Assembly: GCA_963777505.1 (NCBI GenBank)
Contig: CAVZQN010000003.1
Span: 347,932-411,931, forward strand
Direction of reading: 5' to 3'
Source of the DNA: an uncultured bacterium
GTDB lineage: Bacteria > Acidobacteriota > HRBIN11 > JAKEFK01
Length of the DNA stretch: 64,000 bases
Shown: in pieces, positions 2 to 62,806 of the stretch
Layout of the letters: each line of letters starts with the position of its first letter
Numbering within the stretch: the stretch's first letter is position 1
The notes under the pieces: model-generated
Databases searched by the model: none
What the model saw: only the letters and a program-made list of their open reading frames with translations
Told to the model about the DNA's origin: nothing
Program-made: the position numbers and the translations under genes

Positions 2-1081
2 GCAGACCGCCAGCCCGAATTCACGCAAATCGATATCGAAATGTCATTTGTTGAAATGGACAATGTAATTGCACTCGTAGAGCCATTGATTCAGCGTATT
101 TTCTCGGCTGCCGGTTATGACATCAGCATTCCATTTCGAAGAATTCCTTACGATGAAGCGATGAACCGATTTGGTTCGGATAAACCGGACCTCCGTTTCG
201 GCGCGGAAATTCAAGATGTAAGTAATTGGGCATCACAAACAGCATTCCGTATATTTCAACAAGCGGAACGCGTAAAGGCGATTGTTGCGCCTCAGCTTGG
301 CCGGTATTCGCGAAAAGATCTGGATCAATTGGATGTAAAAGGCAAGGAGTTTGGAGCTGCCGGTCTGATCTGGATCAAGAAAACGCAGGAAGGATTTCAG
401 TCATCAATCTTAAAAGCGGTCGGAGAAGAAAAAATTGCCGAAGTGTGGAAGCAAGTCGCTGCGGCCGATTCCGATCTTGTATTACTGGTGGCAGGCGGCA
501 ACGACGTTGTGAATTCTGCTCTAGGCCAAATGCGGATTTATCTCTCGAGACAGGAAAAATGGTTACGACCTGAGGATTATCAATTTGCATGGATTTATCA
601 GTTCCCCCTCTTTGAATTTGATAAAGAAGACAACAGATATGTGTCGTGCCATCATCCATTTACGTCCCCTATGCCCGAATGGAAAGAAAAGCTTGAGGAG
701 AGTCCAGAAAAAGCTATTGCACAAGCCTATGATGTAGTGTGTAATGGATATGAAATTGGGGGAGGGAGTATTAGGATACACGATCCCGCCGTTCAGTCGC
801 GTGTTTTTAAAACACTCAGTTTAAGCCGAGAAGAAGCACAGCAGAAGTTTGGATTTTTGCTGGATGCACTTTCTTTTGGAGCTCCTCCTCATGGAGGAAT
901 CGCTCTTGGTATGGATCGTCTTGCAATGTTACTTGCAGGCGAAGAGTCAATTCGCGAAGTCATCGCTTTTCCAAAAACCAGCAGTGCAGTTGACCTAATG
1001 TCAGATTCTCCTTCTGAGGTCTCACCTCGACAATTGAAAGATCTGCATATCTCCATTAAAAAAGATGAAAGTAAGCAATAA
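2..1081 (+). CDS. aspS: Aspartate--tRNA ligase, C-terminal catalytic part (5' end lies outside the window)
   Basis: The reading frame is open from base 2 (..PEFTQIDIEMSFVEMD..). Class II aaRS motifs are present: FRIFQQAER, GGSIRIHD, GMDRLAMLL. Confidence 0.9.
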   Translation, partial: ADRQPEFTQIDIEMSFVEMDNVIALVEPLIQRIFSAAGYDISIPFRRIPYDEAMNRFGSDKPDLRFGAEIQDVSNWASQTAFRIFQQAERVKAIVAPQLGRYSRKDLDQLDVKGKEFGAAGLIWIKKTQEGFQSSILKAVGEEKIAEVWKQVAAADSDLVLLVAGGNDVVNSALGQMRIYLSRQEKWLRPEDYQFAWIYQFPLFEFDKEDNRYVSCHHPFTSPMPEWKEKLEESPEKAIAQAYDVVCNGYEIGGGSIRIHDPAVQSRVFKTLSLSREEAQQKFGFLLDALSFGAPPHGGIALGMDRLAMLLAGEESIREVIAFPKTSSAVDLMSDSPSEVSPRQLKDLHISIKKDESKQ

Positions 1082-2036
1082 CACACGCGTCGAGGCCTTA
1101 TATCTTGACCGCATCAGCCGATTATCTTCATCGATGGCAAGTGTCATCCGCGGAAAACACGAGGCAATTCAGTTGACACTGACCACTCTTCTTTCAGGAG
1201 GACATCTTCTGATTGAAGATGTTCCAGGAATCGGGAAAACAATGCTAGCGCAAACTCTTGCGCGATCTATTTCGTGCGATTTTCATCGGATTCAGTTCAC
1301 TTCAGACTTAATGCCTTCTGATATTACAGGCGTATCAATTTGGAATTCGCGGGATCAGGAATTCGTTTTTAAAGCCGGTCCGATTTTTTCAAACATTGTG
1401 CTGGCAGATGAAATTAATCGCGGCTCTCCGAAAACTCAAAGCGCTTTGCTTGAAGCAATGAGTGAATTTCAGGTAACAGTTGACAACCTTACATATGAGC
1501 TGTCACGGCCATATATGGTAATCGCTACTCAAAATCCTGCCGAACATTATGGAACATATCCATTACCCGAGTCTCAGTTAGACCGGTTCTTGATGCGGAT
1601 CCGGATTGGATATCCTGATGAGATGCGCGAAAAGGAGATTATTCGAAGTCAGGAATTTGAGCATCCATTAAATAAAGTACAGCATGTTCTTGAGCGAAAT
1701 GAAGTGATCATGTTTCAAGAACAGGTGAAGAATGTACTTGTTGAGGATACTGTTCTTTCTTACTTACTGAGCATTGTCACTGCAACCCGGAACTCACCGC
1801 TGATCTCGGTCGGGTGCAGCCCTCGCGGTTCGCTTTATTATTTCCGTGCAGCACAGGCTCATGCATTCTTAAAAGGCCGCGACTATGTCATTCCCGATGA
1901 TATTAAAAGTTTGTCGATCCCATTGCTTGCACATCGGATCCTGTTAAAATCATCAACTGTATTCCAGGACCAACGTTCTGAAGAGGCTGAAAGGGTTATC
2001 CGTCAGATTGTGGATACCGTGTCTGTGCCGCTTTGA
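1065..2036 (+). CDS. MoxR-family AAA+ ATPase
   Basis: Walker A DVPGIGKT, SDITG and ADEINR motifs are typical of MoxR/RavA. The start overlaps the aspS stop. Confidence 0.85.
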   Translation: MKVSNNTRVEALYLDRISRLSSSMASVIRGKHEAIQLTLTTLLSGGHLLIEDVPGIGKTMLAQTLARSISCDFHRIQFTSDLMPSDITGVSIWNSRDQEFVFKAGPIFSNIVLADEINRGSPKTQSALLEAMSEFQVTVDNLTYELSRPYMVIATQNPAEHYGTYPLPESQLDRFLMRIRIGYPDEMREKEIIRSQEFEHPLNKVQHVLERNEVIMFQEQVKNVLVEDTVLSYLLSIVTATRNSPLISVGCSPRGSLYYFRAAQAHAFLKGRDYVIPDDIKSLSIPLLAHRILLKSSTVFQDQRSEEAERVIRQIVDTVSVPL

Positions 2037-3787: not shown

Positions 3788-5218
3788 ATGGAAACCGCAC
3801 GTATTCTGATTATTGAAGATGATCCTGATTTTGGCAGGACTGCAAAATCACTTCTTGAGCAAGAAGGGATGGAAGTTGAAACTGCCAAAACCAGTGCAGA
3901 AGCATTTGAGCGTTTATTGTATTCACCCTTTGATGTTGTTTTGCTTGATCTGGTTCTTGGTGAAGAATCCGGATTGAGTATTCTGCGCGAATTAAATACA
4001 TCAGGCAGCACAATTCCAATCATAATCATGACTGCTCATGCTTCGATCGAAACAGTTACAGAAGCAATGCGGATCAACGCATTCGATTACATACGGAAGC
4101 CATTTGCACGTGAGGAAATTCGAGAGGTTTTGCGAAGAGCCATTTCGGCGGGTGCAAGGTCTGATGAGGAAATAAAGCGAGAGAAGACGGGGAAGACGCT
4201 GCCAATAATCGGCCAGAGTTTCGGCATGGTCGAAGTGTACAAAGCAATTGCGCGTGTTGCTCAAACGGATTCGACAGTTTTAATTACAGGTGAAAGCGGC
4301 ACAGGAAAAGAACTTGTTGCGCGCGCGATCCATGAAAATTCGCTGCGTGCTTCAAAACCATTTGTCGCTGTCAATTGTGGCGCTTTAACCGATACGCTGC
4401 TAGAAAGTGAATTATTTGGTCACATGAAAGGAGCATTTACCGATGCTAAGACTTCGCACCGTGGAATTTTCGAAAGTGCAACCGGCGGTACAGTTTTTCT
4501 TGATGAAATCAGTGAGACTTCTGCAGTTTTTCAAGTCAAACTCCTGCGTGTATTACAACAGCGGACAATCCGTCCAGTTGGAAGCAGTGAAGAACGTCCA
4601 ATCGATGTACGAGTTATTGCAGCTACAAACCGTCCAGTCGATCATTTATTGGCTTCATCGTTCCGGAAAGATTTGTTGTACCGGTTGAGTGTAATCAATA
4701 TTCATATACCAGCACTTCGTGCGCGAATTGATGATATCCCTTTGCTGGCTACAAATTTCTTGCGGAGGTTTAATAAGAGGCAAGGGAAGTCTGTCGTGAT
4801 GGCTCCAGCAACAATCGAATGGATGAAAACACTTCCATGGTCCGGCAATGTCCGCGAGTTAGAAAATGCGATTGAGCGTGCAGTTACGATGAAAGGAACG
4901 GGAGAAATTTTGCCGGAAGATCTTTTACAATTCGGTTTGATTTCACATACTCCTGATGGTGTTATTTTGCCGGAGCCTCAGCACGCAAGACCTGTTGAGC
5001 CGGTTTTAGAACCAGGCCCCCCTTCGTCACTCAAAGATGTGATCCGCAAACATATTTTGGATGTTTTAACGTATACCGGGGGCAACAAACTTCAGGCTGC
5101 AAAAATCCTGGGTGTGGGACGCTATACGCTTTATCGTATGGCGGAACGGTTTGGAATTGATCCTGCAGAGCTTGGGCTATCGCGCGTTAAAAAACGGAAG
5201 ACCGGCAGCGATAAATAG
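3788..5218 (+). CDS. Sigma-54-dependent Fis-family response regulator (NtrC-like)
   Basis: Receiver domain (ILIIEDD..LLDLVL), AAA+ sigma-54 interaction domain (GESGTGKELVARAIH, GAFTDA, ESELFGH), and a C-terminal Fis-type HTH. Confidence 0.9.
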   Translation: METARILIIEDDPDFGRTAKSLLEQEGMEVETAKTSAEAFERLLYSPFDVVLLDLVLGEESGLSILRELNTSGSTIPIIIMTAHASIETVTEAMRINAFDYIRKPFAREEIREVLRRAISAGARSDEEIKREKTGKTLPIIGQSFGMVEVYKAIARVAQTDSTVLITGESGTGKELVARAIHENSLRASKPFVAVNCGALTDTLLESELFGHMKGAFTDAKTSHRGIFESATGGTVFLDEISETSAVFQVKLLRVLQQRTIRPVGSSEERPIDVRVIAATNRPVDHLLASSFRKDLLYRLSVINIHIPALRARIDDIPLLATNFLRRFNKRQGKSVVMAPATIEWMKTLPWSGNVRELENAIERAVTMKGTGEILPEDLLQFGLISHTPDGVILPEPQHARPVEPVLEPGPPSSLKDVIRKHILDVLTYTGGNKLQAAKILGVGRYTLYRMAERFGIDPAELGLSRVKKRKTGSDK

Positions 5219-5284: not shown

Positions 5285-6652
5285 ATGAAATCGTTGACTC
5301 CGGGGACACATCTCGGCCGTTTTAAGCTCAGCAACCTTTTAGGCCGGGGCGGGATGGGAGAAGTTTGGAAGGCGCAAGACGTGCGTCTCGGGCGTGAAGT
5401 TGCAATTAAGATTCTTCCCCCTGAGCTGGCAACCAATCCGGAATTACAAATCAGATTCGATCGCGAAAGTAAAATTCTTGCCGCTCTCAATCACCCTGGA
5501 ATCGCTCAAATTTATGAAGCAAACGAAGAATATCCAGAAGCCCCGGATCATTCAAAGTCGACGACCAAAATCTCATTCCTTGTTATGGAATTTGTTGAAG
5601 GAAGAAGTTTATCTGAAATTTTGGCCAATGGTTCGTTGCCTGTCTTAACGTCAGTCCGGTTGGGACGGCAAATTTCAAAGGCTCTCCACGCAGCACATGA
5701 AGCGGGAATTATTCACCGCGATCTCAAACCTGCAAATATCATGGTTACGACACGCAATCAAGTGAAAGTGCTCGATTTCGGATTGGCGCGGCCCCTGATG
5801 CAGCAGACTCACAGCACGAAGCAAGCTCTTCCGGAAGTAACTACGTCCGGAATGGTTTTGGGTACTGCGGCTTATCTAGCGCCTGAACAAATCAAAGGAA
5901 TGTCAGCAAACATACGCAGCGACATCTGGTCACTCGGCTGCGTTTTATATCAAATGACATCAGGAAAAAGGCCTTTTCCTGCAGATTCAATTCCGGAAGT
6001 TCTTGCCTCTGTATTGCGCGATGAACCTTCAGACGTTTCCACCTTAAATTCATCTGTAACTCCACCTTTAAAAACCCTCATAGAGAAATGTCTGGATAAG
6101 GACCCTGAGAGAAGACCAAAGGATGCCAAAGAAGTGAGTATCGCCTTAAAAGAAATTCTTCAGGAAATGCGTAATGGTCAGCCTTCATCGCCTTCAATGG
6201 AACCAGTGCCACTCTCTGAACTTTCAATAAGCCCATCGATTCAATTGATAAACCGCTACTTGCATATGATTGATTCCACTTTCCCCCAAATTACTGGCAA
6301 AGATGGCAAAGTTGGTTCGATTGAGCTGCAACATCACGGTACGAAGATGGGGCTTCTTGTAGTGCCAAAACCATCAGGGGATAAAGTTATGATCGTGGCT
6401 CCGCTTTGCGGTTTGCCTGAAGGAAACTTGCTGCGCGCCTTTGCAAAACTTCTTTCATTGAATAACGGACACACCGATGTAGCTCGATTTTCAATTGATC
6501 AAGAAACCCGAACAATAAATCTGATTTGCATTCGAAATTGTTCTTCGCTAGACACACGTCAATTGAGAGCGGTGCTCGATACGATGAGCACGTCAGCGCA
6601 GCGCCTGGGAATTCCTTTCATGAATGAATTCGGTCTGAAAGAGGAGAATTAG
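5285..6652 (+). CDS. Ser/Thr protein kinase with a C-terminal YbjN-like (T3SS-chaperone-like) domain
   Basis: Kinase motifs GRGGMGEVW, VAIK, HRDLKPANIM, DFGLAR, APE. The C-terminal ~130 aa are paralogous to the next ORF. Confidence 0.85.
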   Translation: MKSLTPGTHLGRFKLSNLLGRGGMGEVWKAQDVRLGREVAIKILPPELATNPELQIRFDRESKILAALNHPGIAQIYEANEEYPEAPDHSKSTTKISFLVMEFVEGRSLSEILANGSLPVLTSVRLGRQISKALHAAHEAGIIHRDLKPANIMVTTRNQVKVLDFGLARPLMQQTHSTKQALPEVTTSGMVLGTAAYLAPEQIKGMSANIRSDIWSLGCVLYQMTSGKRPFPADSIPEVLASVLRDEPSDVSTLNSSVTPPLKTLIEKCLDKDPERRPKDAKEVSIALKEILQEMRNGQPSSPSMEPVPLSELSISPSIQLINRYLHMIDSTFPQITGKDGKVGSIELQHHGTKMGLLVVPKPSGDKVMIVAPLCGLPEGNLLRAFAKLLSLNNGHTDVARFSIDQETRTINLICIRNCSSLDTRQLRAVLDTMSTSAQRLGIPFMNEFGLKEEN

Positions 6653-6654
6653 AA

Positions 6655-7119
6655 ATGCCCAGGTATGAATCCAACCAGGCAATCATTGGACATCTTCGGC
6701 GTACGAAGGCAACGTTTGATGGATTCACTCCTCAGTCTGTTTCGATGGGTGGACAATCCGTCTCCATGCTTCACGGAAAAGTTGAGTATCGTAATTCAAA
6801 AGTTCATCTTGCACTGCTTACAAGACCTGGCGAAACACATGACACTCTCATTTTTTCACTTCCTACTTTTCGTGTGAATGTTTCAACGGCTGCTGAGATA
6901 TTTGAGCAACTGCTTTCCTGGAATAACGGATCAACAGGCTCGGCACATTTTGCACTGGATGAGTTACTGAACTCGATTAACCTAGTTTGTGTACGAGCTG
7001 TTGAAGGTTTGGATCTTCATGAATTTCAGAATTGCATGGATCAAATGCTGAACGTCCGCTTGAATGCATTGAGTCAGCTGCGAAAGAACTTTGCGGCTTC
7101 TTCATTGGAGGAGTTATGA
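6655..7119 (+). CDS. YbjN-like domain protein, a paralog of the kinase C-terminal domain
   Basis: Shared pattern L.S.NNG.TG.A.F.LD....INL.C.R.....LD...L with the kinase tail, and similarity to E. coli YbjN (LSAINASSLTVKAFLDMQDDNLPKLVVCQSL). Confidence 0.5.
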   Translation: MPRYESNQAIIGHLRRTKATFDGFTPQSVSMGGQSVSMLHGKVEYRNSKVHLALLTRPGETHDTLIFSLPTFRVNVSTAAEIFEQLLSWNNGSTGSAHFALDELLNSINLVCVRAVEGLDLHEFQNCMDQMLNVRLNALSQLRKNFAASSLEEL

Positions 7120-7898
7120 AGAAAGCCCTTCTGTTCGCTATCATTCTTTCCATTTGTTCAATCGCATTCGCTGAGATGACTGTCTTTTTCAAAGACGGCA
7201 CATCAGTTACTGTAACGAAAATCGTATTCAAGGGAAATGTAGCTGAACTTTTTCTCATGAATGGAAAGACCCGCAATGTTGCAGCAGACAAAATTGATTT
7301 GAAAGCGAGCGGTATTCCTAAAGCTGAAGGAAGTTATGGACAGGCAGGCCTTTCTTCCAATGCACGCGAAACGCGTACTGCAACCCCGCCACTTATTGGA
7401 GATTCAAAACAACGGCAACTCGCGTTAAAAGAAGAATGGGACAAAGCTGAACAATCGGCTGTGGCCTTAAAAACAATTGGTTCAATACGACAAGGAGACA
7501 TTGTCAGGATCGTTAACCGGGCCGCTTCAGGCTCGACTCCTGCTCCTCCTCCTTCTGATTATGAATCTCTTGAGGATTTTGATGTAGAGTCGCTTCAAGA
7601 AGGTACCTTCATGCAAACGAAGGATGAACCCTTCCTGGTAATCTTCAAAACTGCGGAAGGAATTTATGGCAAGAAACTCTTTGACACGGCAACCTTCCAT
7701 TCCAACTTTAGTATCAATGAAAAGGCCACTGAACCTCCGCCTGCGATCGTTAAAGTTCCTGAACCGACAATAAAGATTCCGAATCCAGAAGAAACTCCTG
7801 TTAAGACTGAACCTTTGCCCTCACCGGAGCCATCGATACAAGAAGAAGAGGCAGCAACAACGGTGCCTGAAGAAACAGAAACACTCAAACAAAAGTGA
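7117..7898 (+). CDS. Secreted hypothetical protein with a Pro/Glu/Thr-rich C-terminal tail
   Basis: GGAGG RBS then ATG. Signal peptide MKKALLFAIILSICSIAFA. Low-complexity PEPTIKIPNPEETPVKTEPLPSPEPS. The start overlaps the upstream stop. Confidence 0.55.
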
Positions 7899-8509
7899 CG
7901 ACGCGCAGTTTCTCGATTGCTCCGCTTTTAATTGGTATTGCAGGGATCGTTCTTGCAGGCGGTGCATTGTTCGTATATTCGAGAAATCGGAAAAAGCCTT
8001 TTGTGAACACTTCACAATTTAAACAATATGAAAACGAACTGCGTGATTTTGAGTTGGAGGTCTGGCTGAAGCACGGACGTACATTGGATCAACTTATCGA
8101 AATTTGTCTGAAGAAGTTTTATCAAGACCAACCTGCCGCGCTGGGGGTTGCTATTAAAATTCAAAAAGGTGCTGATCGTTCAAGTGTCATCCAGTCAATT
8201 GCCAGACAAAGTGGTCTGACCATTGGTTCTGCTGAAGATATTTACTCCGAAATGTTTCACAGAATTAATTGGATTCGTGAAATGATACGCCAGGTTTCTG
8301 AAAAAGTCGGGAAACAACCTCTGACGCATCCTGAAAGTGTATCTGCACCTGCGCAACCGGTTTCACATCCAAAACCTGAGACATCTACTCCGAAAGTGTC
8401 AGATCCTAAACCAGAAACCTCCGCAAAGCCATCTCAGGCCGTCGCCACAACCGGCTTACCTGTCTATCTCCGCAATGCCCTCAAACAGCTCGGCGAGCTA
8501 TCGGATTGA
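7895..8509 (+). CDS. Membrane-anchored hypothetical protein with a Pro/Thr-rich C-terminus
   Basis: GTG start overlapping the upstream TGA (GTGA). N-terminal TM helix IAPLLIGIAGIVLAGGALFVY. PKPETSTPKVSDPKPETSAKP repeats. Confidence 0.5.
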   Translation: MTTRSFSIAPLLIGIAGIVLAGGALFVYSRNRKKPFVNTSQFKQYENELRDFELEVWLKHGRTLDQLIEICLKKFYQDQPAALGVAIKIQKGADRSSVIQSIARQSGLTIGSAEDIYSEMFHRINWIREMIRQVSEKVGKQPLTHPESVSAPAQPVSHPKPETSTPKVSDPKPETSAKPSQAVATTGLPVYLRNALKQLGELSD

Positions 8510-8536: not shown

Positions 8537-11059
8537 TCACAAGATTTTCAGCTGATGATCTTTTTGTTTCAACGCAAAACCGCTCGCAACTAGAAATACG
8601 ACTGTAAATAGAACGAGAACGACCTGATCCCTTATTTTGGAATCTGGATGGTCGATCCATACGAAGAGCCGCGCATTATTCCTCAATCGTCTTTCAGATC
8701 GTTGCAATTCATCGCGAGCGTCTTCCATGTTCTGCTGTTCGTGTTTCAAGTCTCTTGAAATTCTGTCGGCATCGTATCTCAGCGTATTCAGTTCCACAAA
8801 GTCGGCGACATCACCCATCTTCTCAAGAATTTCATCTAATTCATTTTGCAATGAGCTGATCCGCTCTTGTGCTTCTTCCATTTCGTTTTGGCTCAGATCG
8901 ATTGATTGCTCAAGGCTGTCTTTTAGTTGCAAGGAAGGAAGTTCAAATTGCTTCTTCATGAGGTTATAAGACCATTTGCTGATCATGACTTCGCCAAATA
9001 TTTTTTGAGTTCCTTTCAGTTCGCCGAATATTCCGGAAAACAAGACCTGAGGAATCAGGAGAATCGGAACAAGAGCAATCGCTTTGTCAGGCGAATTTAC
9101 AATTGAGCTAACCAGGAGACCCAGCGAGACGCCAGCTACTCCACAAAGAAGCAGAGGCCAGTATGCATGAAGGAATTTATCCGGTGTTAGTAATGCAAGA
9201 ACAACACATTGCAATGCGAGCAAAATCGAGAGCACAACAAATTTTGAACTCAGATATGGAACAATCCCCAGGTTCACCATTCGTTCTCGCCGATACAGCG
9301 GAAGTTCTTTGCAGATTTCACGAGCCGAGTTATTGCAACCAAACCAAAGAGCGGCAAGCGCCATCATGAACAACCGGCTGCTGAGATTTGTTGTGGCTAT
9401 ATAAATAAAAAACGTAATTAATGGTGCTTGAGCAAGCAACAAGCCTGTATTCTTGCGATCTCTCAGTATGATTTCCAGATATCGTTTTGCCAGAGTTATG
9501 CCCTGATGAACAGGATGTGATGGAGCTTCAGGCAGCCGTTCTGTCGATTGGGATGTTGAGCGCTTTGATGGAAGTATCTGATCGCGCGCAAGATTGATGT
9601 CATTGCGATGAGTTTCGGTCTTTTGAAATTCATCCTGCCATTCTTCTGCAGGACGGTTTTTGATTCGCGAATAAAGCGCGCTCAGTGTATTAACTTGAAA
9701 AAAGTTCATTGCGTCTTGAGGGCTGCCAAAAAAGATGACACGTCCGGAATGCATCAGAACAATTCGTGAAAACATCATTGCATGTTCAAGAAGGTGAGTT
9801 GTTAGAATCGTAATTCTTCCATCCTGAGAAAGCTTTTTGAAAAGCACCATTAGCTTTTCATCCAATGCCGGATCCAACCCGGAAGTCGGTTCATCAAGGA
9901 AAAGAATTCCAGGTTTTGTAAGAAGCTCAATTGCAATATTGACCCGCTTGCGTTGTCCGCCGCTCAATCGATGAACGGGTAAACGTTCCTGATCTTCAAG
10001 TTCGAGTTCGATCAAGGTTTCCTTCACCCGGATCTTGCGTTCTTTTTCCGACATATCAAGAGGCAGCCGCAACTTCGCCGCATAACGAAGCGTTTGCTCA
10101 ACTGTTAGTTCGCGATGAATAATGTCGTCTTGAGGTACAAATCCAATATTTCTTTTGAAGAGATCGAAGTGTGTGAATACATCCAATCCGTTTAGTTGAA
10201 CTCTACCTGCTGATGGCAAAATCTGTCCGCTTAAACATTTCATCAACGTCGTTTTTCCTGATCCACTTGGACCGATCAGGCCGATCAGTTCATTGGAATT
10301 ACAGACAAGCGTTCCACGATCGATGATTCTTTTTTCGCCGGCAGATACGCTGATTTGCCATCCGATCAACTGGCTTTGCTGCTGCAGTGTATAAATGTTG
10401 AGGAATTCGCCGGTGAATAGCAGCATGTAAGGCATGATCAAAACAGATTCCCCAGGTGAAAGTGGAGTCCGATGAATGAGCCTATCGTTTACATATGTAC
10501 CGTTGGAACTTCGTAGATCTTCCAGGTAGAGGATGCCGTTATTTCGTTCCAACCTTGCATGCATAGAAGAAACCTGCGGATGATTGAGCACAACGTCACA
10601 GCCTTCATTTCTTCCGATAAGGAGTGGAAAACGGGTCAGAAGTTTTTGGCTGACAAATCCTGAAACCTGCATTTCACCAAGACTTGGTGCCTGGGCAGCA
10701 TTAGATTTTTGGGCTTTTTCTGCTGTGAGATGACGTCCGAATGAACCAAGTTCAGTTCGTTCAGAAGACGGAATTCGTCGACACAAGAATTCAATCCCAT
10801 CGATTGAAAAAGTTTCACCATTTTGCAGGAGAGCTTGATGGCATAGATTTTCGCGATATTTGAACAGAATGTCGGGTTGAGCTGAACGCACCGAGAGACC
10901 TTCACCGGAAGGTTCTATATTCAAATGGTGTGAACGCACATGGGGTGAACTAATTCGAATGTGGCTCTGAGGGCCACTTCCAAGGACGTTAATGCCTGTT
11001 GTTAAAGGAATAACCCGTTCTTCAGACTTGCCGGGAGCCTGGACCAGAACAAGATCCAT
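8537..11059 (-). CDS. ABC exporter with two N-terminal FHA domains, an ABC ATPase, an ABC-2 transmembrane domain and a C-terminal coiled coil (Rv1747-like architecture)
   Basis: FHA1 (~res 10-100) and FHA2 (LLIGRNEGCDVVL..SSMHARLE..LEDLRSSNGTYVN). Walker A GPSGSGKTT, signature LSGGQRKRV, Walker B ILFLDEPTSGLD. Multi-TM region, then a coiled coil and one more TM helix. Confidence 0.85.
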   Translation of the reverse strand: MDLVLVQAPGKSEERVIPLTTGINVLGSGPQSHIRISSPHVRSHHLNIEPSGEGLSVRSAQPDILFKYRENLCHQALLQNGETFSIDGIEFLCRRIPSSERTELGSFGRHLTAEKAQKSNAAQAPSLGEMQVSGFVSQKLLTRFPLLIGRNEGCDVVLNHPQVSSMHARLERNNGILYLEDLRSSNGTYVNDRLIHRTPLSPGESVLIMPYMLLFTGEFLNIYTLQQQSQLIGWQISVSAGEKRIIDRGTLVCNSNELIGLIGPSGSGKTTLMKCLSGQILPSAGRVQLNGLDVFTHFDLFKRNIGFVPQDDIIHRELTVEQTLRYAAKLRLPLDMSEKERKIRVKETLIELELEDQERLPVHRLSGGQRKRVNIAIELLTKPGILFLDEPTSGLDPALDEKLMVLFKKLSQDGRITILTTHLLEHAMMFSRIVLMHSGRVIFFGSPQDAMNFFQVNTLSALYSRIKNRPAEEWQDEFQKTETHRNDINLARDQILPSKRSTSQSTERLPEAPSHPVHQGITLAKRYLEIILRDRKNTGLLLAQAPLITFFIYIATTNLSSRLFMMALAALWFGCNNSAREICKELPLYRRERMVNLGIVPYLSSKFVVLSILLALQCVVLALLTPDKFLHAYWPLLLCGVAGVSLGLLVSSIVNSPDKAIALVPILLIPQVLFSGIFGELKGTQKIFGEVMISKWSYNLMKKQFELPSLQLKDSLEQSIDLSQNEMEEAQERISSLQNELDEILEKMGDVADFVELNTLRYDADRISRDLKHEQQNMEDARDELQRSERRLRNNARLFVWIDHPDSKIRDQVVLVLFTVVFLVASGFALKQKDHQLKIL

Positions 11060-11223: not shown

Positions 11224-11820
11224 ATGGTCGGCGATGAGAAAGAACTGTTATATCGAGCGCAACAAGGGGATGAAACTGCATTCCAACAGATTGTCGAGAA
11301 GTATAAGCGGCAAATGTACTACCTCGCCCTCGATCTTACAGGAAATCATTATGATGCCGAGGATTTGTCTCAGGAGGCTTTCGTGAAGGCGTATACATCG
11401 ATTCAAGGTTTTCGTGGGGATGCGAAAATTAGTTCCTGGCTTCATCGGATTGTGGTCAATGCCCATCTTGATGAACGCCGGAAAAAATCACTTACACTCC
11501 TGCGAACGAGCGATGAATTAAATGAAAGCCTGACTTTGCATTCAGCTGGCGGAAGCGGATTTGAAACCAATCCGGAAAAGAAGATGGAACAATCCAAAAT
11601 GCAGGAGCACATCGAAGAAGCCCTCAAAACGTTAACACCAAGAGAGCGTTCCATTTTTGTTTTACGTCATTATCAGGAACATGCTCTAAAGGAAATTGCG
11701 GAGATGCTGGAACTCAGTGAAGGAACTGTAAAGAGTTTCTTATTTCGTGCGATTAAGAAGCTTCAAAAGGCCCTTTCCAAATATGAATTCCGATTTGAAG
11801 CGAGGAGTTCCAATGAATAA
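11224..11820 (+). CDS. ECF-family RNA polymerase sigma-70 factor
   Basis: Sigma-70 region 2 (AFQQIVEKYKRQMYYLA, SWLHRIVVNAHLD) and region 4 (RERSIFVLRHYQEHALKEIAEMLELSEGTVKSFL). Confidence 0.85.
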   Translation: MVGDEKELLYRAQQGDETAFQQIVEKYKRQMYYLALDLTGNHYDAEDLSQEAFVKAYTSIQGFRGDAKISSWLHRIVVNAHLDERRKKSLTLLRTSDELNESLTLHSAGGSGFETNPEKKMEQSKMQEHIEEALKTLTPRERSIFVLRHYQEHALKEIAEMLELSEGTVKSFLFRAIKKLQKALSKYEFRFEARSSNE

Positions 11821-12631
11821 CTGCGAGAAATTTGAAGATCAATTCGTTGATGCTTTGTATGACGAACTAAAATCTCAGCCAAAGGAAGATTTCGATTCAC
11901 ATTTAAAGGAATGTGCACAATGCAGAGCTCTTTATCAGACAATGCAAAAGACGCTTAACGTGATGGATGAAAGGATTCATCCGGAACTTTCACCAGAATA
12001 TTGGCAGCAATATGATGCGTCATTGCAGAATCGTCTCTCTGAGGTGAAGTCGAAAGATAAAGACAAAGGGAAAGTCATATCATTCAATAAAATTCCTGGT
12101 TGGGCTCTTAAAGCGGCAGCAGCATTCATTCTTGTAGGGCTTGGAATATTGATCGGACGTTATTATATGGCGCCTGAACCAGCGAAGATCGTAGTTAAAG
12201 ATGCACAGCCGGCACTTCCAGTACACAGGGCTTCATTGGATCCTGAAACAAGACGGTTTTTGGAACGATCTGAAATCTTACTTGTAGGGATTGTGAATTT
12301 AGAACCAGAGGAAGATAGCACTTATTCAACAGATTTAACAGCTCAAAAGAAAATGTCACGGGAATTGATTCAGCAAGCCCCGGTAATTCGAGCAAATCTA
12401 AAAGGCCCGGAACGCCGGCGTCTTACACAATTGGTTTCCGATCTTGAATTGATCATGCTTCAAATTGCAAATCTTGAAGCTGAAAGTGATGTGCCTGAAA
12501 TTGAGCTTGTGAAAAGCGGCGTAGACCGCAAAGGGGTCTTGTTCAAAATTAATGTGGAACAAATGCGTATGTCGGGTGCCGCCGAAAGTAAACCGGATCA
12601 AAACAAAACATCCGGTGAGAAGAAACTATAG
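11813..12631 (+). CDS. Anti-sigma factor, zinc-finger (ZAS) type, single-pass membrane protein
   Basis: RBS AGGAG then ATG. HLKECAQC is an H-x3-C-x2-C motif. TM helix ALKAAAAFILVGLGILIG. Overlaps the ECF sigma stop. Confidence 0.65.
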   Translation: MNNCEKFEDQFVDALYDELKSQPKEDFDSHLKECAQCRALYQTMQKTLNVMDERIHPELSPEYWQQYDASLQNRLSEVKSKDKDKGKVISFNKIPGWALKAAAAFILVGLGILIGRYYMAPEPAKIVVKDAQPALPVHRASLDPETRRFLERSEILLVGIVNLEPEEDSTYSTDLTAQKKMSRELIQQAPVIRANLKGPERRRLTQLVSDLELIMLQIANLEAESDVPEIELVKSGVDRKGVLFKINVEQMRMSGAAESKPDQNKTSGEKKL

Positions 12632-12647
12632 TGGAGGAAATGAGACT

Positions 12648-14240
12648 ATGAAAGGTGGAGGAAAGAAAATAATGGCCATTGCGTTAGCATTTTTCGCGAT
12701 GGTTTTGGCGGCTCAACTAAATGCAACAACGATAGCGTATTATGCCGATGGTACTCCCGGCGGTAAGGACGAAGCATCAAAAGCTTATAGAGTTGCCTAC
12801 GATTTGTTTTTAAATGAAGAATGGGACAAGGCAATTCCAGCTTTGCAGGGAGTAGAAAAACAGTTTCCAAAAAGTTCAGTTGCAGATGACGCTGCATTTC
12901 ATGCCTGTTATGCATTGGACATGTCTGGCAAATCACGAGAAAAAACATTCGCATGCTATGACCAGTTTGTAAAAAAGTATACGAGCAGTAATTTTCTCGG
13001 TGATGCAACTCAAAATATGATCCGGCTTGGTAATGATTTGGCGGGAACTGATCCAAAGTACAAAGCAATGATTGAAGGATTCAATAACAGCAAAAACATA
13101 GAATTGAAATTGCTTGCGTTACAGGCATTGTTGGATTCTGAGGGAGATGAGCAAGCTCTTCCCATGATCATCAATTTGTACGACAAACTTGAGAAACCGG
13201 CAGATCGTGAAAAAGTTTTATGGATCATGAATGATATTGAAGATCCAAAGGTTATCGTTAAGATGTCAACAATCATTCAAACAGATCCATCTGTAGAGAT
13301 CCGCAAGAAAGCAGTCTATGCACTTGGGGATCGTGGGCCAGAGGCTACACCAGAATTGAAGAAGGTTCTGGCTTCTAAGAATGATCTTGAAGTTCGTAAG
13401 GCTGCATTACATGCGCTTTCGAACACAGAGGATCCAGGCGTGGTCAAAATTTTAGGAGATGTTGCATCAACAGAATCGAATGAAGAACTCGCCAAGGCTG
13501 CAACGTATGCTCTTGCTGACGTGGAAAATCCTGACGCAATAGTTGCCTTGCAATCGATCTTAAAATCTCAAATCAGTGTTGAAGTTCGAAAAGCAGCGCT
13601 TCATGCGCTGGCTGATCATGGTGGTGGAACGTCTGTCGCCACGTTGAAGCAAGTCGCATTAAATGATTCGACTGGAGAGTTACGCAAGACCGCCACATAT
13701 GCGATTGCCGATGATGATACAAAGGAATCATTCGAAGCATTAAAAGAAATTTTGGCGACAAGCAAAGATCCTGAAGTGCAGAAGGCCTCCTTATACGCAA
13801 TTGCCGACAATGTAGGGCCAGGAGCGGCAGACATATTAATGCAAACTGCAATTAACAATCCGCAAGAGGAACTTGCAAAAGCGGCAGTTCATGCACTTGC
13901 AGAAGCAACGGAAGGCGATACGGCTCTACTGCTTCAGGTATTTCAGAAAGGGAAATTTCCTGACGTAAAAAAAGTTGCTCTCTATGCAATTGGCGAGCGC
14001 AAAGGAAAAAGTGCCATTGATTCACTTTCTAAGATTTTGAAAGAAGAAAAAGAAGAAGAATTTCGTGTTGTCGCTTTGTATGCTCTAGGAGAAGTTGGCG
14101 ATGCTGCAGTGCCAATCTTGTTGCATACAGCAACCAATGATCCAAGTACTAGAATCCGTACGACTGCTGTTCAGATGCTTGGAAACATTGGAACACCTGC
14201 AGCGAAAGATGCATTGATGAAAATTCTGGAAAAAGAATAA
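12648..14240 (+). CDS. Secreted HEAT-repeat (PBS-lyase type) protein with an N-terminal TPR-like region
   Basis: GGAGG RBS. Signal peptide MKGGGKKIMAIALAFFAMVLAAQLNA. At least nine E(V/L)RK(A)A..AL(A/G)D repeats. Confidence 0.75.
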   Translation: MKGGGKKIMAIALAFFAMVLAAQLNATTIAYYADGTPGGKDEASKAYRVAYDLFLNEEWDKAIPALQGVEKQFPKSSVADDAAFHACYALDMSGKSREKTFACYDQFVKKYTSSNFLGDATQNMIRLGNDLAGTDPKYKAMIEGFNNSKNIELKLLALQALLDSEGDEQALPMIINLYDKLEKPADREKVLWIMNDIEDPKVIVKMSTIIQTDPSVEIRKKAVYALGDRGPEATPELKKVLASKNDLEVRKAALHALSNTEDPGVVKILGDVASTESNEELAKAATYALADVENPDAIVALQSILKSQISVEVRKAALHALADHGGGTSVATLKQVALNDSTGELRKTATYAIADDDTKESFEALKEILATSKDPEVQKASLYAIADNVGPGAADILMQTAINNPQEELAKAAVHALAEATEGDTALLLQVFQKGKFPDVKKVALYAIGERKGKSAIDSLSKILKEEKEEEFRVVALYALGEVGDAAVPILLHTATNDPSTRIRTTAVQMLGNIGTPAAKDALMKILEKE

Positions 14241-20629: not shown

Positions 20630-20657
20630 TACCGCAGAGACTTTGAGTCTTAGCGGT
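20630..20657. repeat. Family 1 repeat copy (hairpin form)
   Basis: TACCGCAGAGACTTTGAGTCTTAGCGGT. Includes the stop codon of the sulfatase-TPR gene. Confidence 0.55.
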
Positions 20658-22725
20658 TGAGTTTTTGACGGGCGGATTCGATTCGTGCTGCATGAATATT
20701 CGGATCGGCATAAGTAATGAAATTTTGATATGCCTGTTTAGATTCATCAGTTCTTCCCATGCGTTCCAAAATAATTCCAAGATTGTAATAAGCTTCAGCA
20801 AAATTAGGATTTTTTTCCAGCGCTTTTCGCAGTAATTCTTCCGCTCCACTCAAATCACCTTGTTGGCCTTTTAATATTGCCAGCGAGTAATATGGGTGTG
20901 CCAGGGATGGATTAAACTGAATTGCACGTTCAAATTGTTCGGATGCGCCTACAAGGTTCCCCAAATTCCGGTATGTATTTCCCAGTTCGTACGCTGCAGC
21001 CGCATTTCTAGGGTCCAGTTCCAAACTCTTTTGTAAATATGGAATCGCTTCTTGTGGCCTTCCGGATACTGTTAAGGTTTCACCCAAATTTACAAGTGCT
21101 TCTTGCATTTCCGGATCAATTTGTAACGCAAGTTTTTCTTCCACTATCGATTTTTCAATATCACCGATTCGTTTAAAGCCAAGAGCTAACCTGTGATGGA
21201 TTTTGTTATCTTCTGGTGTGAGCTGAAGCGCCTTCTGCCAATATTGAACCGCTTTTTCGGGATTTTCTTTAATTACAAATTGACCCAGCGTATCGAGTAA
21301 AACTGGATTACTGGCATCCATTTGCGAGGCTCGCTCCAAAAGTTCAATTGCCTCATTCTGTTTTCCTTCCATACTCAGAAACGTTGAACGTTCGTATAAC
21401 TTCCACACCTCAATTTTACTTTTCGGATCAGGAAGATTCTCCAGGTTCTTTGGCTTAGTTGTGCCAGACAAATATCCCAGGCTGCGAAGGTTTTCTTCAA
21501 GTGCTGGATCCATCTTTGTATCCTGGGCCGGCGGCTGGATCTTTTTGTACTTTTGCAATTTATCCGCAATGCTTCGCACAGCTTGATTATTTATTTCTTG
21601 AATGTTGGTTTTTTCATGAGGATCTGCTTTGAGGTTGTACACTTCAGGCTGTGGAGCATCAATCACTTTCCATTCTGTTGTTCTTGCCGAATGCAAAGGA
21701 CTCCAACCAATTCCAAGCGGATAATGCGTTTCAAGAATAGCGGGAACTTCACCCAGGGATTTTCCTGAAAGCATAGGCACTAATGATCTTCCATCAAGAC
21801 CTTGAGGCTTTTCACTTCCAGCAAGTTCCAGGAGTGTTGGTGCAACATCAATCAATTGAACTTGCTGAAGTATTTCTTTGCCCGAGGTTATGCTTGGACC
21901 CGCCATTACAAATGGAATCTGAATTGTAGAATCATACAAAAAAAGGCCATGACCTAGTTCATCATGATCTCCCAATCCTTCCCCATGATCGGCAGTGATG
22001 AGAATGATTGTTCTATTTCGAACAGCGTCCAGCGATTTGATAATCTTGCCGATTTGTTCATCGACATATGCAATTTCACCCAGATACTGATTCGAATAAT
22101 TCGAACGGTATGGCTCAGGAGGGTTATATCTTGCATGAGGATCATAAAAATGAATGAACAGAAAAAAAGAGGATTGCTGATTGGAAGACAGCCAGTTTAT
22201 TGCTTCCGAAGCTGTCGTATCAGCAAGGCGTTCATTTTGTGGATTGTTTGAATCCTGCGCGCCGTACTGAATGAAGTCGTCGTAAAATTCAAATCCGTTA
22301 GAAAGTCCAAACCTGTGATCCAGCACGATGCTGCTTACAAATCCGGCAGTCTTGTAGCCTTTCGACTGTAACAATGAAGGCAAGGTTGCAACAGTTGGAT
22401 TTAAGCGGTAGCCATGGTTGTCGCGAATTCCATGTTTTGCTGGTAACAGTCCAGTCAGCAGTGATGCATGTGATGGAAGAGTTAATGGTACGTGTGCTAT
22501 GGCATTTTTGAAAACGATTCCGGATCGACCTAATGCATCAATGTTTGGAGTTCGAACTTGCTGATTGCCATAAATTCCAATCGAGTCGGCTCGCGTCGTG
22601 TCGATTGAAATGAGTACAAAATTCAGTTTTGGATTTTCGGCAGCAGGCTGTGGCTTTTTCCAATAAAACAAAACCGCAAAGACGGCAATCAGAATAAAAA
22701 GAATTAGCGCAATCTTATTTCGCAA
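20650..22725 (-). CDS. Sulfatase-family hydrolase fused to C-terminal TPR repeats
   Basis: N-terminal TM helix. Sulfatase signature LISIDTTRADS..GIRDNHG, TADHGE. The C-terminal ~300 aa are TPR repeats. Confidence 0.8.
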   Translation of the reverse strand: MRNKIALILFILIAVFAVLFYWKKPQPAAENPKLNFVLISIDTTRADSIGIYGNQQVRTPNIDALGRSGIVFKNAIAHVPLTLPSHASLLTGLLPAKHGIRDNHGYRLNPTVATLPSLLQSKGYKTAGFVSSIVLDHRFGLSNGFEFYDDFIQYGAQDSNNPQNERLADTTASEAINWLSSNQQSSFFLFIHFYDPHARYNPPEPYRSNYSNQYLGEIAYVDEQIGKIIKSLDAVRNRTIILITADHGEGLGDHDELGHGLFLYDSTIQIPFVMAGPSITSGKEILQQVQLIDVAPTLLELAGSEKPQGLDGRSLVPMLSGKSLGEVPAILETHYPLGIGWSPLHSARTTEWKVIDAPQPEVYNLKADPHEKTNIQEINNQAVRSIADKLQKYKKIQPPAQDTKMDPALEENLRSLGYLSGTTKPKNLENLPDPKSKIEVWKLYERSTFLSMEGKQNEAIELLERASQMDASNPVLLDTLGQFVIKENPEKAVQYWQKALQLTPEDNKIHHRLALGFKRIGDIEKSIVEEKLALQIDPEMQEALVNLGETLTVSGRPQEAIPYLQKSLELDPRNAAAAYELGNTYRNLGNLVGASEQFERAIQFNPSLAHPYYSLAILKGQQGDLSGAEELLRKALEKNPNFAEAYYNLGIILERMGRTDESKQAYQNFITYADPNIHAARIESARQKLNR

Positions 22726-37124: not shown

Positions 37125-40100
37125 TTGAATCAGGATCAAGAAACAATCCTATTGACGCTTGCTTTGAAGAAAGGCCTTTTGAACGAAAAGGATGTTCAAA
37201 ATGCTGAGGGTCAGGAAAATGCTGGGCAACGTGTTGATTGGCTTGTTAAACAAGGACGAATCGATCGTTCTACAATCGACCTCTTGCTGAATTCTGGCGA
37301 ATTTAAGGCAGAAACAAAGCAGCCTTCAGCCGGCGCAATTTCAATCGAAAATTTTCGGGAACCGGGTGCGCCAGCTTTCCCTGTATCAAATTGGGATCGA
37401 TATGAATTCGAAAAATATCTGGGCGAAGGAGGTATGGGACGTGTCTTTAAAGCAGTCGATCTACGTCTGAAACGGAATGTCGCACTGAAGTTCATGATGA
37501 GCACTGCTGGTGGAAGAACGAAACGATTGATCCGCGAAGCACAAGCTCTTGCGCGAATTCATCACGATAATGTGTGCCAGGTTTATGAAATTGGTGAAGT
37601 TGAGGGCAACCTTTACATCGCCATGCAATATGTCGAAGGTGTGACTCTGGATCATGCAGATGTCGATTCATTTTCACTGCAAGAAAAAGTGCGGATCATG
37701 TTGGAGACAGCAGAAGGGTTACATGCAGCTCATCAAACCGGAATCATTCATCGCGACATCAAACCAGCAAACATCATGATTCGAAAAAGTGAAGAAGGCA
37801 CATGGCATCCTGTGTTGATGGATTTCGGATTAGCCCGCGAAACAGAAGATGAAGGAATTACGGGGACTGGTTTTATCGTAGGTACGCCTGCATACATGGC
37901 CCCCGAACAAGCAACACTTGAAAGCGAACAACTCGATCGTAGAACTGATATTTACAGTCTTGGCGCGACCATGTACAACCTTTTCACCGGGCAGGCTCCA
38001 TTTTCAGGGACAACTCCATTGGAGATCATCCGTAAAGTCAATGAAAAAGATCCTGAACCGCTTAGCAATTTAAATCCACAAATTCCTGCAGATCTTCAGC
38101 GCGTTGTAATGAAGTGTTTGGAGAAGCAAAGGGAACGCCGTTATCAATCTGCTAAAGAATTAGCAGAAGATCTGCAACGTTTTCTCCAGGGTGAGCCTGT
38201 TCTTGCACGCCCGATGCATTCGATTCACAGAAAATTTCGTCGAGTTGTACGGAATAAGATTGCAACCGCTGCGCTCATTGTGCTTGCGGCTGCTGTGTTG
38301 ATTTATCTTGTTGTCACAATCCGTAGCCGCGCGGAAATTCAAAATCGTTTGCGTCTCGCCAATGAATTTGTTCAAGAAGTACGATACGTCGACGAATTTA
38401 TGCGTCATGCACTGACAGCTCCATTGCATGACATTCGCCCGGAACGACAAAACGTCAGGGAAAGATTGAAGCAATTTGAAAAACGTGTCATTGAATCCGG
38501 TGCCGCGGGAGCCGGACCTGGTGCTTACGTAATGGGAAGAGGTCATCTTGCATTGAAAGAGCCGGAAACGGCACGGAAATGGTTAGAAAAAGCGATCGCT
38601 GCCAATTATAAAGTTCCTGAAGTTGACTACGCGCTTGGCTTAACACTTGGCGAATTGTTTCAAAAAGAATCAGAAGAAGCCGATCGAATTCCGAATAAGC
38701 AACTTCGAGAATCACGAAAAAAGGAATTGGAAAAAGAATTCAAGGAGCCTGCAATTGCGTTGCTGAGATCAACTCAAAAACTTCAAGTGGAATCTCCGGA
38801 ATATGCAGAAGCGTTGATCTTGTTTTACGACCGGCAATATTCAAAAGCTTTAACGAAACTTTCGGAAGCCCTTATTCGCGTGCCATGGTTATATGAAGCG
38901 CAAGTTTTGCAAGGCAAAATCTATTCCGCTCAAGCTCAGGATGCGCGGGATCGCGGATCGAACGATACTGCTATGGAACTTTTCTTAAAGGCAGATGAAT
39001 CCTATCGCAATGCGATGGGGCTCGGACGCAGTGATCCATCTCCATATTCTGCAGCCTGCGGATTGTGGGTGCAGGTGATGAACTTGAATTTGTATGGAGC
39101 CGGAGGCGAACTCGAACCTCATCTTCAAAAAGTAAGAAAGAATTGCGGGCTTGCATTAAAAGCAGATCCTGATCTTGAACTTGCGTACCTCGAACAATCA
39201 CATGCGTTGAAGTTGATCAGTGAGTCTCGAATCGGACGCGGCCTCGATCCATCGGAGTATCTCAAGGAATCTGAAGATCTTGCGCAGAAAGCTCTAAAGT
39301 TGTCACCGCGAAATGCAAGAGCTTACAATCAAATCGGAATGACTCTGACAATGCGCGGACTTTATGAATATGAAATTGGAAGCGATCCGACAGAATCTTT
39401 AAAAAAGGCGCGAAACTATTTGCAATCTTCGATTTCTGTGAACCCTACATATGTGTATGCGCACAATAATCTTGGCATCTGCAATCTATATTATGGGGAC
39501 TATCTTCTTTCGCGCAGCGAGGATCCATCACCGCCTATTAAAGATGCCATTCATGCGTTTGAGCAAGCAATTCAAATTAAGCCTGATTACAGCGGTGCTT
39601 TCAACAATATGGGCAATGCCTATTTATCGCTTGCTGAATGGGATTTCACGCATGGAAAGGATCCATTTCCGTATGCACAGAAAGCTGTCAGTAGTTATCA
39701 GAATGCTGTAAAAGCAAATCCTGCAGAATCATACACACTGCAGAACCTGGGTCTTGCTTACACTCAGCTTGCCAGTTATGAAATCGAAAAGAATATTGAT
39801 CCGACTCCGCACACGACACAAGCGATTGATGCATACGAGCAGGCAATTCAAATCAATCCAGAAAATACAGGCGGTTATGTAAATCTGGCGGTAACATTTT
39901 TGTATCGTGCTGAATATGACATGGAACATGGAAAGAATCCGGAAACAGATTTAAACTCAGCAATCAAGAGTTCACTTAAAGCAGTTGAGATCAATCCATC
40001 TGAATTCCGCTCACTGACAAACATCGGCAGCGCATATAAGAATCGCGCAGAATATTTTTTGATGACTGGGAAATATTCCAGTGAAGATTTCAGCCAGGCT

Positions 40101-62300: not shown

Positions 62301-62806
62301 CCAAATATTTCTTGATATTGACCGGCAACCTTCATCGCATTTTTGACGTTGCCGGCAAGAAGATTCACCGCAACTTCACCGCTCAAGCATGCGCTGAGTA
62401 CAACGAGACCTTTGCTGTGCTCTGCAAGTAATTCTTTATCGACGCGGGGTTTGTAGTAATAGCCTTCTAAATTCGCTTTCGATACTAGCTTTAGAAGATT
62501 GTGATATCCCTCGTTATTTTCGGCAAGGACCACAAGATGATAATTGTTTTCTTCCGTATCACTTGGCTTTCCGGTTTTATCAAAACGCGACACGGGTGCA
62601 ACATACATTTCGCAGCCAATAATCGGTTTAACGCCTTTCTTGATTGCGAGATCATGAAATTCAACAGCACCAAACATGTTGCCATGATCGGTGACGGCGA
62701 CAGATGTCATACCTAGAGATGCGACCTTATCAATCAAGCGTTCAATTTTGCAGGCGCCATCTAGCAAGCTGTAATCAGAATGAAGGTGAAGGTGAGTGTA
62801 ATCCAA
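59374..62806 (-). pseudogene. dnaE: DNA polymerase III alpha subunit (DnaE), split into two ORFs by a single-nucleotide frameshift near 61795
   Basis: N-terminal PHP domain (HLHLHSDYSLLDG) in ORF 61730-62806, TTG start. The remaining ~800 aa are in ORF 59374-61785. Removing one base gives ..EYEQRLIYEINMIKQMGFEGYF.., which matches the DnaE consensus. Confidence 0.75.

Follow-up and report, generated by a model that had tools for sequence, protein, structure and literature searches.

In a 64,000-nucleotide stretch of DNA from an uncultured member of the Acidobacteriota (contig CAVZQN010000003.1; the whole stretch is hereafter called the window), we identified a gene for a Hanks-type serine/threonine kinase whose C-terminal domain has the CesT/YbjN-type fold of class-I type III secretion system (T3SS) chaperones. 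The gene that directly follows it, ORF2, encodes a free-standing paralog of this domain. Together with a gene for a bitopic membrane protein (G3) and a gene for an FHA-domain ATP-binding cassette (ABC) exporter, these two genes form a conserved, previously undescribed four-gene module of uncultured Acidobacteriota (Table 1). Literature searches for a kinase-CesT/YbjN fusion found no description of one. A preliminary description of this region, made from the letters of the DNA, had recognised the two-gene arrangement of a kinase domain plus paralog; that pair is real, but the larger module, with its membrane protein and FHA-ABC transporter, had been missed.

The C-terminus of the kinase and the ORF2 protein are clearly homologous. 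A BLASTP comparison of kinase residues 301-455 with ORF2 gave an ungapped alignment containing 27 identities in 91 positions (30%, E=3e-15). Alignment of the two family profiles with hhalign yielded a probability of 99.7% (E=4e-25) over 138 columns, spanning kinase residues ~315-452 and ORF2 residues 3-149, which is nearly all of the C-domain and of ORF2. For the profile comparison, the kinase family consisted of 38 full-length homologs (47-99% identity) and the ORF2 family of 18 orthologs (40-98% identity). The collinear pattern that had been noticed in the sequence is therefore borne out by both comparisons, with a pairwise E value well under 0.01. The short length of ORF2 might suggest that it is not a real gene, or that the similarity arose by chance. 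However, the pairwise and profile-profile scores, the invariant motifs of ORF2, its conservation in every locus at 40-98% identity and its confidently predicted fold leave this explanation with practically no probability, and chance similarity was rejected on the two scores and the conservation of ORF2. The open reading frames had been placed correctly in the preliminary description; its starting position for the shared region, 6242, falls inside the C-terminal domain, the real start of which lies near position 6227 (residue 315).

Both families have in common the pattern LLSxNNGxT..A.F..D.....NL.C.R, as well as an Asp and a Pro that precede it. In AlphaFold2 (AF2) models, which were made with the family alignments, these shared residues map to helix alpha2, the alpha2-beta4 loop and strands beta4/beta5. 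The C-domain of the kinase was modelled as a(317-329)-b-b-b-a(382-395)-b-b-a(424-448), where a is a helix and b a strand, with a predicted local distance difference test score (pLDDT) of ~90. The ORF2 model (pLDDT 87, predicted template modelling score 0.80) has the same topology, with a longer beta1-beta2 hairpin.

Judged by sequence and by this predicted fold (alpha-beta3-alpha-beta2-alpha), both proteins belong to the CesT/TypeIII_Chap superfamily. The Pfam CesT (Tir-chaperone) family, PF05932, was matched above its 22-bit cutoff by the kinase (30.9 bits, E=3.3e-7) and by ORF2 (23.9 bits, E=4.7e-5). The C-domain of the kinase alone gave E=3.2e-8. Across the two families, 17 of the 18 ORF2 proteins matched CesT, as did 10 of the 14 C-domains. 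In contrast, the cutoff of the YbjN family (PF10722) was not reached; weak matches were limited to two of the 18 ORF2 proteins and two of the 14 kinase C-domains, with best E values of 0.0058 and 0.027, respectively. Both families are members of the Pfam clan CL0097 (TypeIII_Chap). The closest solved relative by sequence was PDB entry 2plg (Tll0839), which matched the kinase C-domain profile with E=6.2e-7 and the ORF2 profile with E=0.0025.

When the ORF2 model was used as a Foldseek query against the PDB, the best 50 matches all belonged to the class-I T3SS-chaperone/YbjN superfamily (best E=2e-4; template modelling (TM) scores up to 0.59-0.67). They included 2plg at the top, ExsC, CesT, PA14_16140, SicP, SpcU, DR1245, YbjN, AmyR and the SycN-YscB pair (1xkp), and sequence identity of ORF2 to the solved chaperones was 8-22%. 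For the C-domain of the kinase, the fold assignment rests on the AF2 topology, the profile match to 2plg and the hhalign match to ORF2. The chaperone/YbjN fold that had been anticipated was recovered in the models of both proteins, in agreement with the Foldseek result for ORF2. The resemblance to E. coli YbjN that had been proposed earlier holds at the level of superfamily and fold (6vu7, Foldseek rank 22, TM score 0.54-0.59), but the best Pfam family is CesT.

The two copies differ in charge. The kinase C-domain is basic, with an isoelectric point (pI) of 8.6 (family median 8.9), and ORF2 is mildly acidic, with a pI of 6.3 (median 6.1). Class-I T3SS chaperones are small acidic proteins of pI 4-5 that act as dimers, in a 2:1 complex with one extended client peptide (PMC13466201); neither of the copies described here has such an acidic pI. 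We found nothing in support of the label 'sensor domain' that had been given to the kinase C-terminus. Proteins of this fold are known above all as dimeric platforms for peptide binding (PMC13466201).

The closest solved relatives of the catalytic domain are M. tuberculosis PknB (E=1.8e-58), followed by PknA. The motifs GRGGMG, VAIK, HRD, DFG and APE are found at residues 20, 39, 144, 164 and 199, and the catalytic motifs are invariant across the 38 homologs. The AF2 model of the kinase had a pLDDT of 85 overall and mostly >85 in the catalytic domain, with a disordered activation loop (residues 168-188). No transmembrane segment was detected in the kinase, either by Kyte-Doolittle hydropathy over 19 residues (KD19; maximum 1.2) or in the AF2 model. 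By these motifs and predictions, the protein is a soluble, catalytically intact, PknB-like kinase of the Hanks (eukaryotic-like) type. Its two domains are joined by a linker of roughly 16 residues that is predicted to be disordered and varies in length and sequence among homologs.

Direct reading of the junction between the kinase gene and ORF2 gave gag gag aat TAG aa ATG, in which the stop codon at 6650-6652 is separated by a 2-nt spacer from the ATG at 6655. Given this short spacer and the GAGGAG site inside the last codons of the kinase, the two genes can be regarded as translationally coupled.

The gene order is conserved. We compared the window with related loci (L001/2, L003/4, L005, L006, L012, L013, L014 and L008; kinase identity 47-99%; L001 and L007 lie on the 3.03-Mb MAG contig CAWINI010000004.1). 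The kinase was followed by an ORF2 ortholog (40-98% identity) and then by G3 in nine of nine loci. The spacer between the kinase and ORF2 was 1-12 nt, with GAGG-type sites, in seven of eight loci, an arrangement that would be expected if the two proteins are made in stoichiometric amounts. In L014, the spacer is exceptional in having 80 nt (5591-5670) and holds an inverted repeat, GAGTAATGAG...CTCATTACTC, which may be either a terminator/attenuator or a small element inserted there. The start of ORF2 in this locus was mis-called in the public annotation, giving a protein of 115 aa that should be 152 aa.

In the related loci G3 is a single gene of 450-552 aa, none of whose regions is in Pfam, and all 38 members of its family lie on contigs of this clade. 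From its N-terminus, the protein has a signal peptide and a periplasmic domain that is conserved, followed by a Pro-rich linker and one transmembrane helix. The part beyond the helix comprises a conserved domain in the cytoplasm (FE.E.WLK.G.T.DQL.EIC.KKFYQD), a tail that is Pro-rich and variable, and a conserved motif at the C-terminus (LP.Y...L.QL..L). The window has G3 in two pieces, the overlapping ORFs G3a and G3b, with the break at the Pro/Glu-rich linker, near an A-run at ~7890. The transmembrane segment of G3b is IAPLLIGIAGIVLAGGALF (KD19 = 2.3), and the cytoplasmic tail of its product, at approximately residues 120-204, contains LPVYLRNALKQLGELSD. The dnaE gene (DNA polymerase III alpha) of the window is also split, into ORFs at 59374-61785 and 61730-62806 (both on the minus strand) that overlap by ~56 nt, one having the PHP domain and the other the NTPase, finger, HHH and OB domains. 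Both breaks are probably frameshift or indel errors of the assembly rather than biology, since dnaE is an essential gene and is broken similarly. A genuine two-gene split of G3 was rejected in favour of a frameshift, because close relatives (P0315, P0317 and P0318; 69-70% identical) carry G3 in one ORF and dnaE is broken too.

The exporter comprises a degenerate FHA-like region (residues 1-95), a linker, a canonical FHA domain (residues 140-216), an ABCA/ABCG-like nucleotide-binding domain (NBD) and an ABC-2 membrane domain. Its canonical FHA domain matches GarA and the Rv1747 FHA domain (6cah) in the PDB, and its NBD matches those of the ABCA/ABCG type. A Thr near residue 101 of the linker is kept in five of the five proteins that have the N-terminal domain. 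The exporter gene is convergent with the kinase operon in the window, L003, L005, L006, L012 and L014, and is partially present in this arrangement in L013; the contig of L008 ends before the position of the exporter.

The duplication that gave rise to the two chaperone-fold copies is ancient. Among eight kinases and nine ORF2 proteins from related loci, mean identity was 45% for kinase C-domains among themselves (minimum 31%) and 57% for ORF2 proteins among themselves (minimum 40%), compared with 24% between a kinase C-domain and ORF2 (maximum 30%). C-domain/ORF2 pairs from the same genome (18-30% identity) were no closer than pairs from different genomes. Because identity within each group greatly exceeds that between the groups and same-genome pairs are no closer, the duplication must be older than the clade, with no gene conversion and with purifying selection on both copies, which by their sequences are now separate families. 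Thus, the idea of a domain plus a free paralog in a coupled pair was correct insofar as the two are true paralogs; a recent local duplication is excluded by the ancient divergence of the families.

When 1.84 billion representative proteins were searched with a profile built jointly from the two paralogs, only 162 matches were obtained at E<=1e-3 and 7 at E<=1e-30. The kinase-fused matches were a handful, all in the family described here, and the rest were mostly stand-alone proteins of 130-160 aa. The longer matches that we sampled held other fusions, to HEAT repeats, to a partial aminotransferase (probably a gene-call artefact) and to N-terminal regions of unknown nature; no kinase fusion outside this family was seen among them. 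A scan of genome contigs with the ORF2 profile returned three loci, one of which was a weak unrelated match in Neisseriales. The next-nearest stand-alone relative, P0146, adjoins genes for an RyR-domain protein and TIR/SLATT proteins without a kinase link, suggesting that the link to a kinase is clade-specific. From the source names of the homologs, the clade is one of uncultured Acidobacteriota.

What might a kinase gain from a chaperone fold in two copies? We propose that the basic C-domain and the mildly acidic ORF2 protein associate as a 1:1 pseudo-symmetric heterodimer, comparable to SycN-YscB, because the fold works as dimers that bind one extended client peptide. Strict co-inheritance, translational coupling, complementary charges and ancient divergence all support a heterodimer that would be obligate. 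In the simplest case, it would serve as a docking, substrate-presenting module of the kinase, and its most likely client would be the disordered cytoplasmic tail of G3 with its conserved C-terminal motif. Through binding of this client, the soluble kinase would be recruited to a membrane sensor, and a 'receptor kinase' of three parts would form at the membrane. The next step would be phosphorylation of the ABC exporter by the kinase, at the inter-FHA linker Thr near residue 101, and the exporter's own FHA domain would read the phosphothreonine, placing export under control as in the PknF/Rv1747 system. In this scheme, the module would have no connection with type III secretion. Taken as a whole, this chain, in which a heterodimer docks the kinase on a client peptide within a PknF/Rv1747-like circuit, is the explanation that we favour, at a probability that we judge to be a little below an even chance.

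In M. tuberculosis, PknF phosphorylates Thr152 and Thr210 in the linker of Rv1747, to which the transporter's own FHA domains bind, and the regulation is positive (PMC3138270, PMC8339232). It is this precedent that makes the inter-FHA linker Thr the best candidate substrate in our module. As in the PknF-Rv1747 system, a Hanks-type kinase is encoded here near an ABC exporter with an N-terminal FHA domain and a Thr-containing linker, and the two exporters share a canonical FHA domain and an ABCA/ABCG-like order in which the NBD precedes the transmembrane domain. The systems also differ. PknF is membrane-anchored and co-transcribed with Rv1747, whereas the present kinase is a soluble protein with a chaperone-fold domain at its C-terminus; the exporter gene here is convergent, with ORF2 and G3 lying between the kinase and exporter genes; and where Rv1747 has two FHA domains, the first FHA domain of our exporter is degenerate.

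The same gene pair could be read with the opposite functional sign, with ORF2 acting as a decoy or competitive regulator. In that case, the kinase would homodimerise through its C-domain, as for trans-autophosphorylation, or bind a client through it, and ORF2 would cap this interface or compete for the client, holding the kinase off until a signal arrives. Paralogy, co-occurrence and coupling fit this explanation equally well. Moreover, ExsC, a chaperone-fold member of a partner-switching cascade, is among the best structural matches, and the greater conservation of ORF2 relative to the fused domain (57% vs 45%) would suit a regulator with several partners. However, from tight coupling one would expect both proteins to be made constitutively and in roughly equimolar amounts, a pattern more fitting for an obligate subunit than for an inhibitor that has to be titrated, and a signal-sensing feature was not evident in ORF2. 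Structurally, the decoy is the same as the heterodimer, and the functional sign alone differs. On the sequence evidence, we infer that ORF2 is more probably a partner of the kinase domain than a decoy or competitor, for which we estimate somewhat less than one chance in four.

The loop within the shared motif, NNG-x-T, lies at 6922-6936 of the window in ORF2 (residues 90-94) and at 6461-6475 in the kinase (residues 393-397). Its Thr (T94, in WNNGxT) does not vary among the 18 ORF2 orthologs, and most kinases have a Thr at the equivalent position (T397, in NNGHT). Within both chaperone-fold domains, this loop was modelled by AF2 with the lowest confidence (block pLDDT 72 and 75), and this low confidence suggests that it is an exposed, flexible functional element; it could be an interface or a site of phosphorylation and FHA binding. 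Such a site would be central to another explanation, according to which ORF2, and perhaps the C-domain too, is a phospho-substrate or adaptor that the kinase modifies at T94/T397 and the FHA domain of the exporter then binds. The invariance of T94 and of its counterpart in most kinases, the apparent exposure and flexibility of the loop and the conserved FHA protein encoded next door are all consistent with this idea. On the other hand, the Thr belongs to a larger motif of both paralogs and may equally be structural or part of an interface, and the fusion of the domain to the kinase would be left unexplained. We regard a phospho-adaptor as improbable.

It is very improbable that these proteins are genuine T3SS chaperones, with the kinase as a secreted effector in the manner of YpkA/YopO and SycO. 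Both proteins do pass the Pfam CesT threshold, one ortholog is named 'CesT family type III secretion system chaperone' by NCBI, and SycO-YopO/YpkA is a known chaperone-kinase pair (PMC13466201, Table 1). Against this, the hosts, uncultured Acidobacteriota, are free-living, the two copies have pI values (8.6 and 6.3) that differ from the typical 4-5, and the genes conserved alongside them encode a membrane protein and an ABC exporter. The chaperone-fold domain is C-terminal on the kinase, whereas effectors bear an N-terminal chaperone-binding region. No T3SS components were found among the Pfam-scanned ORFs of the window or the genes called in the related loci, whole genomes lying outside this search. 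The T3SS-chaperone reading was rejected on three grounds: T3SS genes were not found at the loci, the pI does not fit, and a C-terminal position on the kinase is the wrong one for such a domain.

Several points weigh against the heterodimeric docking scheme itself. Heterodimerisation, the identity of the client and the phosphorylation target are all things that we infer, and a decoy or competitor would predict the same co-occurrence and coupling. A dimer interface at alpha2 and beta4-5 would be by analogy with class-I chaperones, in whose structures these elements form it. The exporter gene, being convergent, is not co-transcribed with the kinase. In L001, an insertion sequence element (9422-10722; HTH_Tnp_1 plus rve transposase) follows the G3 gene at the place of the exporter, which in this genome is missing or displaced. 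Finally, the N-terminal FHA-like domain of the exporter is below Pfam thresholds (Yop-YscD_cpl E=0.0055, FHA E=0.039 for residues 1-95) and is absent in L005.

Class-I T3SS chaperones such as CesT, SycE, SicP and SpcU have the same fold as the two proteins described here, both of which pass the CesT threshold, and SycN-YscB demonstrates that two different paralogs can form a chaperone dimer. In contrast to the class-I chaperones, one copy here is fused to the C-terminus of a kinase, neither copy is acidic, and no T3SS was found nearby. In Yersinia, SycO and YpkA/YopO likewise pair a chaperone-fold protein with a Hanks-type kinase, but there the kinase is a secreted effector whose N-terminal region is bound by a separate homodimeric chaperone, whereas here the fold belongs to the kinase. 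The members of the fold that act outside secretion (Tll0839 (2plg), YbjN/AmyR, DR1245, ExsC and PA14_16140) are stand-alone proteins, and we know of none that is fused to or paired with a kinase. Regulatory uses of the fold include partner switching by ExsC, the interaction of CesT with CsrA, and PA14_16140. Outside secretion, the fold serves as a cytoplasmic protein-binding or regulatory module (PMC5398634, PMC3575483). Few small protein folds are as widespread in bacteria, but its function outside type III secretion is largely unknown (PMC13466201).

The module places the CesT/YbjN fold in a defined signalling context, attached to a kinase and accompanied by an obligatory free paralog, a membrane protein and an FHA-ABC exporter. 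The role of the fold thereby becomes testable as heterodimer formation, client-peptide binding and kinase targeting. The PknF/Rv1747 paradigm, in which Ser/Thr phosphorylation controls an ABC exporter, would be extended to a distant phylum and to a different localisation of the kinase. It is conceivable, although we consider it unlikely to hold in full, that the class-I chaperone fold was taken up, independently of secretion, as a heterodimeric module, split into a fused and a free half, that targets the kinase by clamping the G3 tail; kinase, chaperone-fold subunit and membrane protein would then make up a receptor kinase in three pieces, by which an FHA-regulated ABC exporter is gated. If true, the system would be a bacterial counterpart of the cytoplasmic kinases that associate with receptors, and a non-T3SS member of the CesT/YbjN superfamily would have an assigned mechanism for the first time. 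Its impact would be conceptual rather than broad, because the clade is small and uncultured and only a few of the approximately 160 relatives are kinase-fused.

Table 1. Positions in the window of the four-gene module, its parts and the upstream regulator gene.
Feature	Position	Strand	Details
Kinase ORF	5285-6652	+	455 aa (ORF listing)
Hanks-type Ser/Thr kinase catalytic domain, residues 1-298	5285-6178	+	Pfam Pkinase E=7.4e-53
Flexible Pro/Ser-rich linker, kinase residues 299-314, QPSSPSMEPVPLSELS	6179-6226	+	AF2 pLDDT <50 at 299-313
Kinase C-terminal CesT/YbjN-type (class-I chaperone fold) domain, residues 315-455, plus stop	6227-6652	+	
GAGGAG Shine-Dalgarno-like site for ORF2	6641-6646	+	In the final kinase codons; 8 nt upstream of the ATG
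ORF2, free paralog of the kinase C-domain, CesT/YbjN-type fold	6655-7119	+	154 aa
G3a: signal peptide, periplasmic domain, Pro/Glu-rich linker	7116-7898	+	Aligns with the N-terminal half of the single genes of relatives
G3b: transmembrane helix, cytoplasmic domain, disordered Pro-rich tail, LP.Y...L.QL..L	7895-8509	+	Alignments
FHA-domain ABC exporter, 840 aa	8537-11059	-	Pfam FHA E=8.9e-22, ABC_tran, ABC2_membrane
NtrC-type sigma-54 response regulator, REC-AAA-HTH_8	3788-5218	+	Pfam; upstream, context only

Upstream of the kinase, the neighbourhood is variable. The NtrC-type regulator lies beside the kinase in one subclade only (the window and L001/L002) and is absent upstream of the kinase in L003, L005, L006, L012, L013 and L014, where either a VWA-OmpA pair or MoxR plus an unknown gene is found instead. 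Two types of upstream flank were seen. One consists of aspS, a MoxR AAA+ ATPase and an unknown gene (1065-2036 (+) in the window; also in L001 and L012), and the other of a divergent VWA-OmpA pair (L003 252-1163, L006 5854-6792, L013 828-1739 and L014 3032-4099). MoxR and VWA proteins usually act together, and these flanks may therefore have a functional link to the module.

Beyond the FHA-ABC gene, on the plus strand, are genes for an extracytoplasmic function sigma factor (11224-11820), a putative zf-HC2 anti-sigma factor (11747-12631) and a 562-aa HEAT-repeat protein (12552-14240). In P0243, a distant relative of the chaperone-fold domain, the domain is joined to HEAT repeats. At 37125-40529 (+), the window encodes a second Hanks-type Ser/Thr kinase (1134 aa); it has a long C-terminal region of TPR repeats, an architecture unlike that of the CesT-fused kinase. 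The window also contains, on the minus strand at 20650-22725, 43720-45822 and 48267-49091, genes for two sulfatase-family proteins, one of which is TPR-fused, and a formylglycine-generating enzyme (FGE-sulfatase), which suggest that sulfated glycans are utilised.

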